Of a stretch of DNA of 7,355 nt, positions 1 through 7,355 are shown in pieces (position 1 is the first letter of the stretch; every line of letters starts with the position of its first letter). The notes beneath the pieces are model-generated. The model was not told the DNA's origin and searched no databases. It saw only the letters and a list, made by a program, of their open reading frames with translations. Position numbers and translations under genes: made by a program. This stretch comes from Dictyostelium discoideum (Eukaryota). The stretch is taken from contig CH709171.1 of the NCBI GenBank assembly GCA_000004695.1, positions 1 to 7,355 on the forward strand, given 5' to 3'.

Positions 1-190
1 TACCCAAAAGGGATCGATCCCCCGACCCTCTATCAAAGGTAGTCTCATCAACCATTACACCATTTGATTGCTTTGATGAAAATTTAAAAATGATAGAATA
101 TTTTATCCCCATTTTTTTTTTCTAAAATTAGATCTTTTTTATTAAAAACCTTAAATTTATGTTTAAAGGAAATTTAAATTCACTTTAAAT

Positions 191-212
191 CTACTTTAAA
201 TCTACTTTAAAT
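191..212. repeat. Tandem 11-mer ctactttaaat x2, preceded by a partial cactttaaat unit. A2 carries x3 at 5629-5661.
   Basis: Seen in sequence. Confidence 0.8.
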
Positions 213-258
213 CCTATTTAAAATTAATTTAAAATAAATTTTAAAGGTATTTTTAAAT

Positions 259-329
259 ATCTTAAAAATTATCTTAAAAATTACCTTAAAAATCACCTTT
301 AAAATCACCTTTAAAATCACCTTTAAAAT
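259..329. repeat. Tandem units atcttaaaaatt x2, accttaaaaat, cacctttaaaat x3 (294-329). A2 has x4 of the last unit at 5743-5790.
   Basis: Seen in sequence. TTTAAA/TTAAAA cores recur with an 11-12 bp period. Confidence 0.8.
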
Positions 330-512
330 TGCTTAAAAATTTATTTTAAAGCAAATTTTAAAGGCATTTTTAAATATCTTAAAAATTACCTTAAAAATTA
401 CCTTAAAAATGAATTTTTTAAACGCGGCTTTAAATTCAATTTAAATCCAATTTAAATCAACTTTTCTTTAAATTTGCTTTAAAGGTTCATTTTTCTTTGC
501 TGTGTCGCTGTG

Positions 513-839
513 TACTTGTGTGACCCTTGAACACACAGAAATAATTAATAATAAATAATAAATAACAAATAATATTATATCTCTTATATAATATAATAAA
601 GCTTTCGTTTGTGCACAATTTGGAATAAAACAACAATGAATTAATTTTTATTTTATTTTCTATTTATACTAAAATTAATTTTACTAAAGAAACCATTGGT
701 AAAATTTCCGAGAATAAAGTAAGAATCTTGTATTTGTTAACGTCTTTTCAGTTACAAATTTATTTCTATATTTGTATTTTACCAGGGTTAAAAACTTTAT
801 ATATTAATTTATGTCGCTTAATTGTTCGCGATTATTACA
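513..839 (-). repeat. 3' LTR of the minus-strand element. It equals 5191-5517 with one mismatch (c709 vs t5387). The boundary may be 517 if the LTR begins TGTGTG on plus.
   Basis: Direct repeat of 5191-5517. In element orientation it begins TGTAATAATCG and ends GGGTCACACA(AGTA). The IN stop codon (818-820) lies inside it. Confidence 0.9.
661..668 (-). promoter_or_regulatory. TATAAATA box within the 3' LTR U3 region (minus strand). AATAAA motifs lie just downstream in element orientation.
   Basis: Plus tatttata is the reverse complement of TATAAATA. Position within the LTR is consistent with a U3 promoter. Confidence 0.45.
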
Positions 840-1669
840 CTCACCCCCGCTCTATTTGATTTTGGGAGTACTACAGGGAGTTGTGTTACAGCTTGACCAT
901 GTTGTGGTGTGCTAGTTGATGGTGGTGGACTCGATACTACAATACTTGGATTAACTAATCTGCTGAATGATAATTCATTCATTGATACTTGGGATGGTTG
1001 ATTTATGAATGAAGGTAATTGGTTCAATTTGTTTATTTTGTTGAAATATCTCTTGCAATTTCTTAATGACTGTGTTGTTGACATGTTTGAACCCAATGGT
1101 ACTTGTATTTGTATTGTTTGGTTTGAAAGTATCCTAACAACTTTAAACGGTCCAATCCAACTTGGTCTGAACTTCTTTAATTCTTCTTCTTTTACGGTTT
1201 GATTTTTCAAGAGTACATAATCTCCCGGTGAGATTGAATTCTTTCTTGTTTTTAATCCATCATAATATTGCTTCTGCTTTGTTTGAGATTCTTGAATTTT
1301 TGTTTTTGCAATCTCTAAACTTTTGTTGATTGTTTCTTCCAACTTTCCAACATAATTATCATTGGTTGTTGCTGAATTATTGAATGGATTTAATGTACCA
1401 AGATCACTTGGTATAGTTGCTTCTCTTCCATAAAGCATTGAGAATGGGCTTGCACCTGTTGATGTATGGACTGAGATTCGATATGCGAATAAACATGAAT
1501 CAAGATACAAATCCCACATAGTGTGAACTTCTTGTGTGAATGATTTTAACATAATTACGATGGTCTTATTGAACCTTTCAACTAATCCATCAGTCTGTGG
1601 GTGGTATGGGCTTGTATTTACTTTCTTTACTTTGAATAATTCATTTACACTACTTATAACTTTATTCAA
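818..1669 (-). CDS. pol: Integrase C-terminal part: third DDE residue (HPQTDGLVERFN), GPY/F module (WIGPFKV), S/P/T-rich tail. No chromodomain. The frame is actually open upstream to 1768. The listed start is TTG.
   Basis: Translation contains TSPYHPQTDGLVERFNKT and FRPSWIGPFKVV. The upstream extension reads IISRHGCPKRLLSDCGTSF. The stop codon lies inside the 3' LTR. Confidence 0.85.
   Translation of the reverse strand: MNKVISSVNELFKVKKVNTSPYHPQTDGLVERFNKTIVIMLKSFTQEVHTMWDLYLDSCLFAYRISVHTSTGASPFSMLYGREATIPSDLGTLNPFNNSATTNDNYVGKLEETINKSLEIAKTKIQESQTKQKQYYDGLKTRKNSISPGDYVLLKNQTVKEEELKKFRPSWIGPFKVVRILSNQTIQIQVPLGSNMSTTQSLRNCKRYFNKINKLNQLPSFINQPSQVSMNELSFSRLVNPSIVVSSPPPSTSTPQHGQAVTQLPVVLPKSNRAGVSVIIANN
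840..853 (-). promoter_or_regulatory. Polypurine tract AGAGCGGGGGTGAG immediately 5' of the 3' LTR (element orientation). It is embedded in the IN coding sequence.
   Basis: Plus ctcacccccgctct is the reverse complement of AGAGCGGGGGTGAG. It is followed directly by the LTR start TGTAAT. Confidence 0.75.
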
Positions 1670-2117
1670 GAATGATGTACCACAATCCGATAGTAATCTT
1701 TTTGGACAACCGTGTCTTGATATAATTAAATTTGAAGTAATGTATTGCTGTTGTTTCGGCAGTGCAATCTACGGTTGCTGCTGCTTCAACCCACTTCGTA
1801 ACATAATCTGAAAACACAATTATGTACTTATGACCTGACATTGATGGTACTTTCATTGGTCCAACGAAATCTACTGCAACCAAGTCCCATGGTTTCTCTA
1901 CTATAATGGTTCCCAACTCTGGTGAGAACTTACTGAATGGACTGGTTTTCATCTTTTGACATATATCACAATTGTTGATGTATTCTTTAACATCCATACC
2001 CATATTATTCCAGTAATATCTTGATGCTAACTTTGAGTAGGTCTTTTGATATCCAAGATGTCCGCCAACTAATGAACAGTCGTGGAACTTCTCTAATACT
2101 TCTTTTTGCATTGACAT
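1662..2117 (-). CDS. pol: Integrase N-terminal part: HHCC zinc finger (H-x3-H ... C-x2-C) and first two DDE aspartates. It starts at ATG 2117. It is out of frame with the downstream IN part.
   Basis: Motifs FHDCSLVGGHLGYQ...CDICQ; AVDFVGP; IIVFSDYVTKW. Confidence 0.85.
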   Translation of the reverse strand: MSMQKEVLEKFHDCSLVGGHLGYQKTYSKLASRYYWNNMGMDVKEYINNCDICQKMKTSPFSKFSPELGTIIVEKPWDLVAVDFVGPMKVPSMSGHKYIIVFSDYVTKWVEAAATVDCTAETTAIHYFKFNYIKTRLSKKITIGLWYIILE

Positions 2118-2179
2118 TGGTACAACTATTCAAATGGCTACTATTTGAGGTCTCTTAAAGAATAATGTTGGATTTACTA

Positions 2180-2680
2180 TTAATCTAAGTATTTAAAGAT
2201 TGGGACTAAGTGTTTATCTTTTCTTTGTTCCTCTGCAATCTTTAAGTCTAAGATTGAATCTAATTTGACTGATTCACCCATTGATATAACTGACATTACT
2301 TCTTCTACTGGACAACTACTAAGTGCGTCTGCAAAAGTATTCTCCTTACCACTTCTATATTTAAATGTGATATTGTAACTAGCCAACTTAACATTCCAAT
2401 TGATAAATCTCTTGTTTCTGATCTTCCCAAGATCATTTCTAAGGAATGATACTGCACTGTTATCAGTGACTACTAATGTTTCTTGGGTGCCAATGATATA
2501 ATGAAATTCTTCTAATGCACATACTACGCTTAAACATTCTTTTTCAGAGGCTGAGTAATTCTTTTCAGTGTCTCTGATGGTTCTTGAATAGAATGATATA
2601 ATACCGTGATCTTGACAAAGAGTTGCTCCAACACCGATATCACTTGCATCAGTTTCGAGTTTGAATGGTTTCTGAATCAA
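2180..2680 (-). CDS. pol: RNase H domain (TDASDIGVGATLCQ, SASEKECL, VVTDNSAV). In frame with RT but separated from it by a TAA at 2684-2686.
   Basis: Conserved Ty3/gypsy RNase H motifs. The listed start is TTG. Confidence 0.85.
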   Translation of the reverse strand: MIQKPFKLETDASDIGVGATLCQDHGIISFYSRTIRDTEKNYSASEKECLSVVCALEEFHYIIGTQETLVVTDNSAVSFLRNDLGKIRNKRFINWNVKLASYNITFKYRSGKENTFADALSSCPVEEVMSVISMGESVKLDSILDLKIAEEQRKDKHLVPIFKYLD

Positions 2681-2683
2681 TTG

Positions 2684-3631
2684 TTATGTATCTGGGTACA
2701 CTAAAATGATCTTATTGTTCTTCAACCTTTCGATTATATTGATACAGATTGACTTATAAGCGTCATTCCATTCGAATATGGTGTCTTGTCTTAATAATTG
2801 GTATATTGGTTTGATTTTTGATGCGAAATTATCTACAAATTTCCTGAAGAAATTTAATGTGCCGATCAATCTTTGTAATTCTTTTACATTCTTTGGATCT
2901 AATAACTTCATTAATGGATCTAGTCTATCATAATCTATTTGAACACCATTCGATTCTATGATATGACCTAAGAATTTTACTTCTTCTTGGAAAAATTGAC
3001 ATTTGCTCAATTTGGCTAACAGTTTATTATCTCTCATTTTCTTGAAGATACCTTCTAGATGTGGTGTATGATCCATTACTGATTTTGAGTGAGATAATAT
3101 ATCATCATAAAATGATTGTAAGGTAAGTCTATTCTCCTCTTTGAATATCTTGTGAATGGTCCTTTGGAAGACTGCTGGTGCATTACACAATCCAAATGGC
3201 ATTACATTGAATTCGAATAAACCTTGTGGTACTGAAAAGGCTGTTAAGTATTTATCACCTTCTCTAATTCGTATTTGATAGTATCCACTTATCATGTCTA
3301 ATTTTGAGTATACATGAGATCCTTTAATTTGATTCCATATTTCATTAATATCTGGTATTGGATATCGATCCTTTACAGTGATATTATTTAATTTTGTATA
3401 ATTAATACACATTCTCATACTCCCGTCTGGTTTTGGACGTAATACTACACTTGATGATACTTGACTATTTGATTCTCTTATAATCTTGTACTTTAATAAT
3501 TCTTTAATATGTTCATCTAAGAAGTCTTTTTGTTCATTTGTGAACTTCACTGGATATGCTTGAAATGATGCATCCTTTTGAGTTAACTTGATTTGATGTT
3601 CAACTCCACTAATCGCACCTGGTTCAGTCAA
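2684..3631 (-). CDS. pol: Reverse transcriptase (YPIPDI, LDMISGYYQI, MPFGLCNAP, FYDDIL, KCQFF..FLGHII). The frame is open upstream to 3655, with a stop at 3656-3658. It is -1 relative to gag.
   Basis: RT motifs in the translation. The listed M is a TTG codon. Confidence 0.9.
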   Translation of the reverse strand: MTEPGAISGVEHQIKLTQKDASFQAYPVKFTNEQKDFLDEHIKELLKYKIIRESNSQVSSSVVLRPKPDGSMRMCINYTKLNNITVKDRYPIPDINEIWNQIKGSHVYSKLDMISGYYQIRIREGDKYLTAFSVPQGLFEFNVMPFGLCNAPAVFQRTIHKIFKEENRLTLQSFYDDILSHSKSVMDHTPHLEGIFKKMRDNKLLAKLSKCQFFQEEVKFLGHIIESNGVQIDYDRLDPLMKLLDPKNVKELQRLIGTLNFFRKFVDNFASKIKPIYQLLRQDTIFEWNDAYKSICINIIERLKNNKIILVYPDT

Positions 3632-4365
3632 TGTATTTGTGAATACATCCTGGGACTAACTCTCTTTAAATCTTGCTGGTTTGTTGTAAAAGATACTTGT
3701 TCAGTAATGGTATTGACTTCTTCTTTGCACTGATTTGCAAAGTGACCAAGCTTGCCACATTTATAACATTTAAGTGGTTTCCCTTTTGGTTTGTTTTTAT
3801 ATTGGTGTTTTTTAACGTTTGCATAATTGTTCTGTTCTTGTTTAACATTATAATCAGGGTGTTTACCTGATGGTGGAAATGGTATCCTGGTTGGTCTTAT
3901 AACTTGTTGTTGTCGTTGAATTTGGGGTTGTTGGTCTTGTACGTTATTATTGATTCTATTTTCTTTATCAATAAATTTGTCTGTAAATCCAGCATTGTAA
4001 AATTCTAAGCTATCATACTTGAATTTTGAATTTGCTTTTGTACGAGCTATCATTATAGCCTCATCTAATAATTTTGGTGCACCTTCGTCAATTGACTTTT
4101 TGATTTCTATATCACTGACCCCTCTAATAAATAATTCAATTTGTCTTTCACTGGTTAATGGAGGATTGATTTGAGCATTGAGTGATCCAAATGCTGTGAT
4201 GTACTTCATGAATTTATCAAATTTTTGATCGGTGAGTTTTGATAATTCATCTTCTGGTTTAAAAAATTTCTTCATATCATATCTTTTAATCATTTCTTTT
4301 TTTAAATCATTATAATTTTCTACTATTTTTGATTTTTGAATAAAAGTAGTTAATGCTGAACCCAA
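3628..4365 (-). CDS. gag: Gag, with CCHC zinc knuckle CYKCGKLGHFANQC near the C-terminus. The first in-frame ATG is at 4293. The frame stays open upstream to 4581, reading through poly-A as poly-Lys.
   Basis: CX2CX4HX4C motif. The ORF start at 4365 is TTG. The upstream extension has no ATG. Confidence 0.8.
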   Translation of the reverse strand: MGSALTTFIQKSKIVENYNDLKKEMIKRYDMKKFFKPEDELSKLTDQKFDKFMKYITAFGSLNAQINPPLTSERQIELFIRGVSDIEIKKSIDEGAPKLLDEAIMIARTKANSKFKYDSLEFYNAGFTDKFIDKENRINNNVQDQQPQIQRQQQVIRPTRIPFPPSGKHPDYNVKQEQNNYANVKKHQYKNKPKGKPLKCYKCGKLGHFANQCKEEVNTITEQVSFTTNQQDLKRVSPRMYSQIH

Positions 4366-4501
4366 AAAATATTTAATTATTTTTCTTTTGACTTCATTAT
4401 ATTCTCCATTATTTTCACCAGTGATTTCGATATATTCAAATAGTGTTGAAATATTTAATGACTCTAAGTCATTATCAGCAAAATAAATTTTATTTTTTGC
4501 C

Positions 4502-4557
4502 TTTTTTTTTTTTTTTTTTTTTTCTTTTTGAGAGGTTTTTTTTTTTTTTTTTTTTTT
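4502..4557. repeat. Two 22-nt poly-T tracts on plus (4502-4523 and 4536-4557), i.e. poly-A in the element leader. They lie in frame upstream of gag.
   Basis: Seen in sequence. Confidence 0.9.
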
Positions 4558-4569
4558 CTTGAAAAGTGT

Positions 4570-4680
4570 TTTGAACTTGATTTACTTGAATTAATTTGAT
4601 TTGATTAATTTATTTTAATTTGATATATCTTGATTTGGTTTACTTTGATTTGATTTACCTTGATTTGATTTTATTTTTAT
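4570..4680. repeat. Degenerate tandem repeats of ~11-15 bp (ttgatttgatt(t)a) in the element leader.
   Basis: Seen in sequence. Confidence 0.6.
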
Positions 4681-4785
4681 TTTGTAATGTTTGAAATTTA
4701 AATTAATTTTAATTGAATTTTGAAACTTGTATTATTTGAAATTAAATGGAATTTATTTAAATTATTATTATTTAATTTTAATTTG

Positions 4786-4848
4786 ATTTATTTAATTTAT
4801 TTAATTTATTTAATTTATTTAATTTATTTAATTTATTTGAAAATTTCC
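4786..4848. repeat. Tandem 9-mer (tttaattta) of about 6-7 copies in the element leader.
   Basis: Seen in sequence. Confidence 0.8.
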
Positions 4849-4972
4849 TTTTTTGGGACCAATATTTAAAAATTTTAATTAATTTAATTGAAAAATTGTT
4901 TTTTCAATTTTGAAACGTTTCTTTTTAATTAATTTTAAGGATTTTTAATTTTTTAAAAAATATATTTTTATA

Positions 4973-4983
4973 TTTTTTTTTTT

Positions 4984-5022
<39 letters not shown>

Positions 5023-5050
5023 CCCCAACCGAAACTATTATTTTTTTTTT
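4973..5050. repeat. Homopolymer cluster: T12 (4973-4984), T34 (4989-5022), T10 (5041-5050).
   Basis: Seen in sequence. Confidence 0.9.
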
Positions 5051-5177
5051 CTTATTTATAAACCTCTCCTAATGTGATTGTTGTTTTTATTATTACTATT
5101 ATTATTATTTGTTGACCGATGTCGCCAAATGTAATGAACGTCGTATTCCAATTCCTATGGGATACTCTTTATAATTT

Positions 5178-5193
5178 GTATATACGTATATAC
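5178..5193. repeat. 16-bp perfect palindrome GTATATACGTATATAC at the 5' LTR / internal-region boundary, where a PBS is expected.
   Basis: The reverse complement equals the sequence itself. It overlaps the first 3 nt of LTR2. Confidence 0.85.
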
Positions 5194-5517
5194 TTGTGTG
5201 ACCCTTGAACACACAGAAATAATTAATAATAAATAATAAATAACAAATAATATTATATCTCTTATATAATATAATAAAGCTTTCGTTTGTGCACAATTTG
5301 GAATAAAACAACAATGAATTAATTTTTATTTTATTTTCTATTTATACTAAAATTAATTTTACTAAAGAAACCATTGGTAAAATTTCTGAGAATAAAGTAA
5401 GAATCTTGTATTTGTTAACGTCTTTTCAGTTACAAATTTATTTCTATATTTGTATTTTACCAGGGTTAAAAACTTTATATATTAATTTATGTCGCTTAAT
5501 TGTTCGCGATTATTACA
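5191..5517 (-). repeat. 5' LTR of the minus-strand element.
   Basis: Direct repeat of 513-839 with 326/327 identity. It ends ...gattattaca at 5517 and is followed directly by repeat A2. Confidence 0.9.
5339..5346 (-). promoter_or_regulatory. TATAAATA box in the 5' LTR, the likely element promoter.
   Basis: Same position as 661-668 in the other LTR. Confidence 0.45.
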
Positions 5518-5963
5518 AAATTTAAAAATGATAGAATATTTTATCCCCATTTTTTTGTTCTAAAATTAGATCTTTTTTATTAAAAACCTTAAATTTATGT
5601 TTAAAGGAAATTTAAATTCACTTTAAATCTACTTTAAATCTACTTTAAATCTACTTTAAATCCTATTTAAAATAAAATTAAAATAAATTTTAAAGGTATT
5701 TTTAAATATCTTAAAAATTATCTTAAAAATTACCTTAAAAATCACCTTTAAAATCACCTTTAAAATCACCTTTAAAATCACCTTTAAAATTGCTTAAAAA
5801 TTTATTTTAAAGCAAATTTTAAAGGCATTTTTAAATATCTTAAAATTACCTTAAAAATTACCTTAAAAATGAATTTTTTAAACGCGGCTTTAAATTCAAT
5901 TTAAATCCAATTTAAATCAACTTTGCTTTAAATTTGCTTTAAAGGTGCATTTTTCTTTGCTGT
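5518..5963. repeat. Direct repeat A2 (446 bp), a copy of A1. It starts immediately after the 5' LTR.
   Basis: Aligns with 79-503. It has extra ctactttaaat and cacctttaaaat units and two 1-nt deletions. Confidence 0.85.
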
Positions 5964-6097
5964 ATATAAACCAATGCCAATAAAAAAAGAATATTGCCAT
6001 TTAAAAAGGTTTGTAATTCTTTAGAATAATTTTTTTTATTTTCATTTTTATTCCTAATATAGTTTACAAAAATTCAAAAAAAATTTTAAAAATTTAT

Positions 6098-6141: not shown

Positions 6142-6187
6142 ATTAAAAAGCTAATTTTTAAGGTACAAAGCGAAGAAAAATGCACCT

Positions 6188-6240
6188 TTAAAGCCAATTT
6201 AAAGCAAATTCAATTTAAATTTGCTTTAAATTGGCTTTAA
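6188..6240. repeat. 23-bp perfect inverted repeat (ttaaagccaatttaaagcaaatt / aatttgctttaaattggctttaa) with a 7-bp spacer. It sits inside a degenerate A-like segment (~6180-6300).
   Basis: Arms 6188-6210 and 6218-6240 are exact reverse complements. Confidence 0.85.
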
Positions 6241-6839
6241 TGATGCTTTTTAAAAAGGTAATTTTAAAGATATTTTTAAGGTCATTTAAAATTTAATTAA
6301 TTTATAATTTAAAAAAGTTATTTTTAATGTAATTTAAAATTACTTAATAATATGCATGCCACACATGTGACAAACCAAGAGATGGTTTATTTATTTGCCA
6401 TTCAGGTACATTAAGAAAACAAGAAGATATTACAAATTTTCACTCCAACAAACCAAATTATGCTGAATTAAATGCTGATATAGAATAAAAAAAAGTATGG
6501 GAAAAAAAAGCAAAAGATATTGGTATCAAAGGTGTGGGCAGAGGGTGAGTCGAACCTTTGTCCATTAATTATTTAAAAACACAACCAGTCATATTACATA
6601 ATATTTTATTAGGTGTCGCACAAAGATGTTTAAATTACATTTTTGATAAATATAAAAATAAAATTGCAAATTTTTTAAATAATTTAAAAAATGCAAAAAT
6701 AATAGTAACAAACCAAAACCATCAATTTCACTATTTGCAAATAAAACAAGGAAGAGAGAATATTATATTACCTTTTAATATCAATTAAGATTCAAATATC
6801 AAATGATAATTTTTTAATTATGGAACAATTAGTAACTAT

Positions 6840-7061
6840 ATGTTTAAATTATATAGTTACTCTTTTGATGAAAATGATTTAAATTCACTTCAAGTATTAA
6901 TTGAATCGTTTAATGCAAAAGGAAATTTAATTACTGTAACAGAAATAATGAATTTCCACATGTTGTTACATTATCCAATCTATATAGAAAATTGGGTGCA
7001 CCAAAATACACTTCAGCTGAAACTTTTGAAGCACAATTATCAAGAATTAAAAATTATTTAA
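6840..7061 (+). CDS. ATG-initiated ORF (73 aa). It may be exon 1 or the N-terminal part of the downstream gene. It overlaps the long frame that starts at 6914.
   Basis: True ATG at 6840. Protein-like N-terminal half (MFKLYSYSFDENDLNSLQVLIESFNAKGNLITVTEIMNFH). Confidence 0.35.
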   Translation: MFKLYSYSFDENDLNSLQVLIESFNAKGNLITVTEIMNFHMLLHYPIYIENWVHQNTLQLKLLKHNYQELKII

Positions 7062-7355
7062 ATAATAATACAAATAATAGGGATGAACAATATGAAAGGG
7101 TTACCAAATTAAACATGGTGAAATTTTTTAATTCAGTAGATAAATTAAAAAGTATTGAACCTGAAAGTACAGCATTAATTATTAGTACCAAAATAAAAAA
7201 TCCAGATAATTTAGATAAAATAAAAATTAAATTAGATTCATTATTTCAAAATTATAAAAATTTAACTTTTCACTCATCAATTAAAAATAATAAAGAAATA
7301 TACAATGCTGGTGATGCAGTTGAAGATGCATCATATAATGAACTTTCAGGTAGGG
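6914..7355 (+). CDS. Partial host protein-coding region, open from 6914 to the window end. No stop is reached. Product unknown.
   Basis: A 147-codon open frame in AT-rich DNA where stops are otherwise dense. Dictyostelid-like codon usage. Translation ...SNLYRKLGAPKYTSAETFEAQLSRIKNYL...EIYNAGDAVEDASYNELSGR. Confidence 0.6.

Follow-up and report, generated by a model that had tools for sequence, protein, structure and literature searches.

The question raised by this locus is why a retrotransposon with two almost identical long terminal repeats (LTRs) should have a coding region broken at several places. The DNA analysed here (the window, 7,355 nt, positions 1 to 7,355 of contig CH709171.1 in assembly GCA_000004695.1) is a small unplaced contig of Dictyostelium discoideum AX4. 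It is very A+T-rich (GC 12-35%), and its minus strand carries a Ty3/gypsy LTR element of the DGLT-A type, with the domain order gag (Retrotrans_gag and a CCHC zinc knuckle), reverse transcriptase (RT), RNase H, integrase (IN) zinc-binding domain and integrase core. The original prediction, made from these letters alone, had described a young insertion whose pol region was broken in four places, and had offered three explanations: inheritance from a defective master copy mobilised in trans, genuine expression devices, or sequencing errors. We conclude, with a probability of about 85%, that the element is a dead copy of a DGLT-A-type Ty3/gypsy element, and that the breaks are ordinary mutations and not translational devices.

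Eight loci were compared with the window: L001, which is the same locus in another assembly, and seven relatives (L002 to L008), which are gene models in several recent assemblies of D. discoideum, D. cf. discoideum and D. citrinum collected by homology search and cluster look-up. Three of the relatives are intact. L004 (D. discoideum, GCA_054859385.1) contains a single uninterrupted open reading frame (ORF) of 1516 codons at positions 2887-7434, L007 (D. cf. discoideum) one of 1509 codons, its gene translating exactly to the 1496-amino-acid protein P0002, and L008 one of 1480 codons. In the L004 ORF, Pfam matches to the CCHC knuckle, an aspartic protease, RVT_1, RNase H, Integrase_H2C2 and rve follow each other in this order, and no chromodomain (PF00385) was matched either there or in the C-terminal integrase piece of the window. 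L002 and L003, each with a single frameshift, share 99.5-99.7% identity with L004. In its coding region the window reaches 92.6% identity with the L004 group and 85.8% with L007, the range for all relatives being 75.6-92.6% at the nucleotide level. L005, from a third strain, first seemed to be a closer relative at the protein level; its DNA is 92.3% identical to the window, no closer than L004. Judged from these reading frames, the normal strategy of the family is one gag-pol ORF of about 1500 codons (gag, protease, RT, RNase H, IN).

The window copy itself is divided into five pieces. Read on the minus strand, gag stays open from 4581 to 3631 and is closed by a TGA at 3630-3628, while the RT frame is open from 3655 to 2687, so that the two overlap by 25 nt (TCCCAGGATGTATTCACAAATACAT) in a -1 configuration. 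The coordinates of this overlap and its lack of a slippery heptamer had been given correctly, but it is a deletion junction and not a designed overlap. The 673 nt that are missing (L004 3851-4523) take out residues 285-509 of the L004 ORF, that is, the entire aspartic protease (Pfam matches at residues 285-388) and the linker before RT, and the frame shifts at the gag/RT junction because 673 is not a multiple of three. In the same way, the TAA at 2684-2686 noted between RT and RNase H is present, but belongs to a private 12-nt insertion. The RNase H frame ends at the TAA at 2182-2180, and from there to an ATG at 2117 all three frames do contain stops; the cause is a 91-nt deletion (L004 5977-6067, with TTAGA on both sides), which shifted the frame and removed about 30 residues of the linker between RNase H and IN, together with a TGT>TGA change. 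Finally, the N-terminal part of IN (2129 to 1665) and its C-terminal part (1768 to 821) occupy different frames, and the switch, correctly placed near 1725-1768, is due to one extra A at 1731-1733. The four breaks of pol were therefore real and correctly located, but they did not exhaust the damage: gag no longer has its start codon (ATG>AAG; an ATG in frame does not recur until 4293), the TGT>TGA nonsense mutation is present, and the 3' LTR is split. This copy cannot make pol products.

None of the lesions was found in any relative covering its site, including the most distant one, L008 (75.6% identity); all seven relatives were informative for the lesions between RNase H and IN, and three to six for the others. 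From these alignments every break is private to the window copy among the relatives compared. Lesions common to the copies of the family, which the original prediction had considered, were thus not seen. Other copies have a single ORF and this copy alone carries the lesions, which indicates plain decay. Among the annotated relatives in several assemblies, none of the lesions turned up in a second copy, and an exact look-up of the product of the frameshifted N-terminal IN ORF gave no match.

The possibility that the breaks are genuine expression devices would require a -1 frameshift between gag and pol, read-through of the TAA at 2684-2686 and a separate IN start at ATG 2117. The arrangement does invite such a reading, since gag and RT overlap in -1, the TAA is a single in-frame stop and the ATG lies ahead of the IN zinc-binding domain. 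However, the overlap was made by the very deletion that also takes the protease, and no slippery heptamer is present within it (3655-3631). An in-phase T_TTA_AAG occurs just outside, at 3670-3664, where a -1 slip would meet a TAG at 3658-3656. This heptamer is also present in the single-ORF relatives, which need no frameshift and have no gag/pol overlap, so that the hallmark of programmed -1 frameshifting, a conserved in-phase heptamer inside the overlap, was not observed. A stop used for programmed read-through should be conserved in functional members, whereas the TAA is absent from the six relatives covering the site. At the position of ATG 2117 the relatives have ACT, ACA or GCA, and none of the intact L004, L007 and L008 has ATG, indicating that it is not a conserved start. 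Beyond this, the IN core is frameshifted by the extra A and a TGA lies upstream of IN. The three intact copies contain neither the stop nor the frame changes, and they share a one-ORF organisation with published DGLT-A elements. We therefore give the expression devices practically no chance.

Sequencing or assembly error is a natural suspicion for a small, repeat-rich and unplaced contig that ends in a palindrome, the more so as its first 40 bases contain two 1-nt indels relative to L001. The latter, from the separately sequenced assembly GCA_054883475.1, is 99.82% identical to the window across all 7355 nt and shows the same five ORF pieces. The differences consist of substitutions at 4455, 4857 and 7326, one poly-T run and the contig ends, and none falls at a lesion site: the 673-nt and 91-nt deletions, the 12-nt insertion, the additional A and both stops all recur unchanged in L001. 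Unless both assemblies share reads, this makes an error highly improbable.

The direct repeat on which the claim of a young insertion was based (513-839 versus 5191-5517) was confirmed, with 326 of 327 positions identical and a sole mismatch at 709/5387. This repeat is not, however, the whole LTR: the 5' LTR measures 388 nt, and the 3' copy stops after nucleotide 327. The 61 nt lacking from the latter are found in L001 after an insert of 1474 bp, and are followed there by ATTT. The same ATTT precedes the 5' LTR, so that the rejoined element is flanked by ATTT on either side in L001, and the sequence past the ATTT at the 3' side is that found past the empty site in an uninterrupted paralogous copy of the target. 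The presence of ATTT on both sides and the empty site in the paralogue indicate a normal integration with a 4-bp duplication, the 3' LTR having been split later. The 5' junction of the insertion reads ...TTTTTAAATTT/TGTAATAAT, and the homology between the target DNA at 5518-5966 and window 79-503 stops exactly at the LTR. The insert that splits the 3' LTR is a palindrome (L001 13798-15271, arms at 13912-14345 and 14749-15182 with 91% complementarity, centre near 14550) with a GTA duplication on either side, and is possibly a foldback-type element. The integration point of the retrotransposon is 13 bp upstream of a tRNA-like remnant, in which box-A-like and box-B-like motifs can be recognised. 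This remnant was called neither by ARAGORN nor by Rfam: scans of the window for tRNA and Rfam families gave nothing, and in the longer L001 the stretch was not called even at E<=1, the only matches being chance miRNA-like ones to palindromic A/T repeats.

The past selection on the coding region was estimated from nonsynonymous to synonymous substitution rates (dN/dS, Nei-Gojobori). The ratio was 0.076 for the window versus L004 and 0.057-0.065 between copies with uninterrupted frames. The value of 0.076 indicates that nearly all the divergence of the window (7.4%) built up under purifying selection, in ancestors that stayed functional until recently. When codon changes were polarised with L007 as outgroup, the window branch had 76 synonymous and 25 nonsynonymous changes and the L004 branch 79 and 11 (Fisher p=0.04). 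With 2933 nonsynonymous sites, the surplus on the window branch, about 14 nonsynonymous changes, suggests about 0.5% of neutral divergence. Such a neutral phase predicts 3.2 differences between the LTRs, and one was observed (P(<=1)=0.17). As the two figures are compatible, a short decay in place suffices to explain young LTRs together with many lesions. Both the LTR identity and the short neutral phase make the insertion look recent, in agreement with the original prediction.

The same data bear on two other histories. In the first, the lesions predate the insertion: either the RNA template already carried them, as a member of a protease-less non-autonomous lineage mobilised in trans by an intact relative, or template switching by RT produced the two deletions in the cycle that gave rise to this copy. 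LTRs that are 326/327 identical despite at least six coding lesions would be explained in this way. No damage is seen in the primer binding site (PBS), the polypurine tract (PPT) or the 5' LTR, and the direct repeats of 5 nt that bound the 91-nt deletion are compatible with template switching. Another D. discoideum strain, moreover, has intact relatives that were evidently active in recent times. Against it stand the lack of a second lesion-bearing copy among the annotated relatives, the empty look-up of the IN product, the selection that acted over almost all of the 7.4% divergence, and the short neutral phase, which fits the LTR divergence unaided. In addition, six separate lesions are not expected from one replication cycle at retroviral error rates. 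We consider this history unlikely; the defective master copy of the original prediction is possible but unsupported, being neither needed nor contradicted by the comparison. The second alternative, an old insertion with LTRs kept alike by gene conversion, would accommodate the many lesions and the secondary insertion within the 3' LTR. It is very improbable in view of the small nonsynonymous excess on the window branch (about 0.5% neutral), which indicates that the interior of the element is not old either.

The comparisons show the lesions themselves, their restriction to this copy, the intact condition of relatives and the purifying selection of the past. That most lesions arose in place once the element had integrated, and not during the final round or rounds of replication that preceded this, we infer. 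Several points nevertheless weigh against decay in place as a full account. Six coding lesions and a split LTR are many for a single LTR difference in 327, and the fit leans on wide Poisson limits and on an excess with p=0.04. Within such wide limits, the final replication cycle or cycles could be the source of some lesions; the TTAGA-flanked deletion in particular would fit template switching by RT. L001 may share the AX4 laboratory lineage, in which case it confirms the sequence and does not provide an independent evolutionary history. Errors of assembly could account for some of the frameshifts seen in L002 and L003. Sister copies that share a lesion but have no annotation are also possible, as the comparison covered annotated relatives.

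Table 1. Features of the element and its flanks in the window. Positions are those of the window; L numbers designate the loci compared.
Feature	Position	Strand	Evidence
Target DNA 5' of the element	5518..5966	.	Copy of flanking repeat with 11-12-nt TTTAAA periodicity; 93.5% identical to window 79-503
Complete 5' LTR	5130..5517	-	388 nt, TGTAAT...ATTACA; end-to-end alignment with 384-387-nt LTRs of relatives
PBS TGGCGACATCGG, 2 nt past the 5' LTR	5116..5127	-	Same in window, L001, L002, L003, L004, L007
Leader, A/T-rich, low complexity	4504..5115	-	Length normal for the family
Lost start codon, ATG>AAG	4501..4503	-	ATGGTAAAAAAT (MVKN) in L002, L003, L004, L007; AAGGCAAAAAAT in window
Gag remnant (Retrotrans_gag, CCHC zinc knuckle)	3655..4500	-	Pfam PF00098, PF03732
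673-nt deletion junction	3654..3655	-	MAFFT alignment with L004, L003, L002; flank alignment with L004, L007, L008
RT segment	2687..3654	-	PF00078, E=3.9e-34
Private 12-nt insertion TAACAATTGATT, first codon the in-frame TAA (2684-2686)	2675..2686	-	Absent from L002, L003, L004, L005, L007, L008
RNase H segment	2190..2674	-	PF17917, PF17919
91-nt deletion junction between two TTAGA direct repeats	2184..2189	-	91 nt retained in 7/7 relatives
Nonsense mutation TGT>TGA in IN frame	2130..2132	-	TGT (Cys) in 7/7 relatives
IN zinc-binding domain and first part of catalytic core	1734..2129	-	PF17921, PF09337
AAA run with one extra A, +1 frameshift in IN core	1731..1733	-	AA in seven relatives
Rest of IN core, GPF motif, C-terminal extension, stop TAA (818-820)	818..1730	-	Same region of intact L004 matches rve (PF00665)
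PPT AGAGCGGGGGTGAG, immediately 5' of the 3' LTR	840..853	-	Read from sequence; conserved in relatives
3' LTR, first 327 nt; last 61 nt displaced	513..839	-	326/327 versus 5' LTR; rest found in L001
Left arm of roughly 1.47-kb near-perfect palindrome splitting the 3' LTR after nt 327	1..512	.	AX4 contig ends inside

These observations can be assembled into the following scheme. A functional element of this family would produce all its proteins (gag with CCHC knuckle, aspartic protease, RT, RNase H and integrase) from one ORF of about 1500 codons; its reverse transcription would probably be primed by tRNA-Ser(AGA), and it would integrate 7-15 bp upstream of tRNA genes. The window copy would have integrated recently, with the 4-bp target duplication ATTT, 13 bp upstream of the tRNA-like remnant. 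It would then have lost its start codon, suffered the 673-nt deletion that removed the protease, and acquired the 12-nt insertion with its TAA, the TGT>TGA mutation and the 1-nt insertion of A. The 91-nt deletion between the TTAGA repeats was probably mediated by microhomology, and the 1.47-kb palindrome would have inserted into the 3' LTR after integration.

The affiliation of the element was examined next. It has the features of Ty3/gypsy elements, namely TG...CA LTRs, a target-site duplication, a PBS, a PPT and the order protease, RT, RNase H and IN (in the window, this order minus the protease). DGLT-A elements are described as having a single in-frame GAG-PR-RT-RNH-IN ORF (PR, protease; RNH, RNase H) and a PBS 2 bp past the left LTR, all copies in AX4 being incomplete (Kling et al. 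2018, PMC6101501; PMC5006619; PMC5633606), and the group integrates about 10-30 bp upstream of tRNA genes (Spaller et al. 2016, PMC5006619). A single ORF is found in L004, L007 and L008, the window copy itself being in five pieces, and the PBS start TGGCGACATCG is found 2 bp past the left LTR. In the relatives, the gaps to tRNA genes, counted from LTR and tRNA coordinates, are 7 bp (Lys), 11 bp (Phe), 13 bp (Val), 13 bp (Ser) and 15 bp (His). Architecture, PBS, absence of a chromodomain and, in the relatives, targeting upstream of tRNA genes suggest membership in the DGLT-A group as delimited by Spaller et al. 2016.

An earlier study failed to find a tRNA matching the canonical DGLT-A PBS (PMC5006619). 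In the window, the 5' LTR (5517 to 5130) is followed by TT and then, at 5127, by the PBS, whose 12 nt pair without mismatch with the 3' end plus CCA of a tRNA-Ser(AGA) gene. The match was made in L008, where this gene (7173-7254) adjoins the element; in D. discoideum the pairing would call for a tRNA-Ser(AGA) ending in ...CCGATGTCG(CCA). The LTR pairs of the relatives are 384-387 nt long and, where both LTRs are present, 99.7-100% identical. Assembly GCA_054859385.1 contains at least four copies of the family (L002, L003, L004 and L006), located at different tRNA genes (Lys, Phe, Val and His). Near-identical LTR pairs and one fully open ORF suggest that the family is recently or still active in this assembly. 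This differs from AX4, whose DGLT-A population was described in the literature as probably unable to amplify.

Among known systems the closest point of comparison is the D. discoideum element Dd_DGLT-A (Dictyostelium gypsy-like transposon A). It resembles the present family in its single ORF (here, that of the intact relatives), the absence of a chromodomain, the PBS start TGGCGACATCG, a PPT directly before the right LTR, a location (in the relatives) about 7-15 bp upstream of tRNA genes and the incompleteness of AX4 copies. Dd_DGLT-A is said to have been described originally by Glöckner in 2001. Its consensus measures 5054 bp, with 265-bp LTRs and 1437 amino acids, compared with about 5.8 kb, 384-388-bp LTRs and about 1480 amino acids here; its 17-mer PBS is the same for the first 11 nt and then differs; and its GPY/F motif IQTGDFVYLHTPYSQTSIGPKFYKPWRGPFKVQEK agrees with that of the window, ISPGDYVLLKNQTVKEEELKKFRPSWIGPFKVVRIL, at about 14 of 35 positions by hand count. 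On lengths, PBS and one motif, rather than on the full consensus sequence, the two do not appear to be the same family. A protein search with the machine-read IN core of Dd_DGLT-A returned no close protein, only one 52% match, and no motif in the published table of DGLT-A GPY/F motifs equals that of the window. Dp_DGLT-A.1-3 and Dl_DGLT-A.1/2, from other dictyostelids, have the same architecture and tRNA-upstream targeting. Retrotransposition-competent copies with intact ORFs have been reported for them, and intact ORFs were likewise observed here in wild strains of the D. discoideum group. In a machine-read IN alignment containing reading errors, the Dl_DGLT-A.2 row looks most similar to the window, which can serve as a lead only.

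More distant systems underline the single-ORF layout. Ty3 of Saccharomyces cerevisiae, also a Ty3/gypsy element, inserts about 15 bp upstream of tRNA genes, but expresses POL3 by a programmed +1 frameshift between overlapping GAG3 and POL3 (PMC6101501). The family described here uses one ORF, and a change of frame is therefore a defect. D. discoideum also hosts Skipper-1, a related Ty3/gypsy element with two ORFs and a chromodomain; it targets centromeres and has a polypyrimidine tract in place of the PBS. None of these features was seen in the window element.

Reviews recognise Skipper and DGLT-A as the two LTR families of D. discoideum and call all DGLT-A copies of AX4 incomplete. The window copy agrees with the latter description, but its family looks like a further DGLT-A-type lineage, with intact copies in other strains. 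We tentatively raise the possibility, with odds somewhat short of even, that the species carries a second DGLT-A-type lineage lacking from the published catalogue, apparently still active in at least one wild-type assembly, with a PBS pairing with 12 nt of tRNA-Ser(AGA), and represented in AX4 by one dead, protease-deleted copy on an unplaced repeat contig. If this is true, the catalogue of Skipper and DGLT-A is incomplete for D. discoideum. In a weaker variant of this proposal, the dead window copy may itself have been mobilised in trans. A literature search for recent long-read surveys of transposable elements in wild D. discoideum found none that was relevant. The decayed copy represents ordinary recent decay and is of little consequence in itself. 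The intact and apparently recently active DGLT-A-type copies in other D. discoideum strains should be more useful to research on Dictyostelium mobile elements: they confirm the protease-bearing single-ORF layout in natural copies, and tRNA-Ser(AGA), through the match seen in the L008 tRNA gene, offers a concrete candidate primer for a PBS that had been reported without a complementary tRNA.

Two gene models cover the broken coding region (window 2183-4520, minus strand). DDB_G0294338 (XP_628729.1, 693 amino acids) and ACTFIT_000004 (751 amino acids) bridge the frameshift and the TAA by invented introns. The former, a "hypothetical protein" in RefSeq also listed in dictyBase, was recovered as P0007 (D. 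discoideum AX4) by a homology search with the conceptual pol. Both models are pseudogene artefacts and not host genes. The polyprotein stop TAA at 818-820 is located about 20 nt within the 3' LTR, the last seven codons (VSVIIANN) being LTR sequence, and the ORF also ends inside the 3' LTR in L003, L004, L005 and L007.

The distance from the PBS (2359) to the ATG (2998) is about 640 nt in L004, compared with about 620 nt for the leader of the window. This leader (window 4480-5115) contains poly-A/T runs of 56-58 nt, (AATTTATTT)n and (TTGAT)n, the repeat lengths of which vary among copies; its poly-T at 4989-4996 differs by 8 nt between the two assemblies of the locus.

Each arm of the palindrome is longer than 430 nt and contains a TTTAAA-type repeat with a period of 11-12 nt, together with a tRNA-like remnant and a motif, GGCTTCGAA, that resembles box B. 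The arm recurs at L001 4519-5031 and 8355-8801 and at window 5518-5966, and a partial inverted copy lies at window 6164-6300. Identification of this flanking repeat as a TRE5 3' end with a poly(A) tail was considered and rejected, as the sequence past the A-run is common to all copies and the repeat forms palindromes. The tRNA-like remnant, GCAATCAAATGGTGTAATGGTTGATGAG...GGGGGATCGAATCCC, occurs at window 4-75 (minus strand) and at L001 14232-14311 and 15346-15421; it has an ACCCT/AGGGT stem around TTGATAG and no evident acceptor stem. On the plus strand, window 6558-7355 contains short ORFs (76 and 73 amino acids) that overlap a 201-amino-acid gene model of L001 (6838-7478) without Pfam match. 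The longer L001 contig also carries DIRS-like ORFs (RVT_1 and Phage_integrase) at 240-3194 and 17897-18684, and such transposon-rich surroundings may explain why the AX4 contig remained unplaced.

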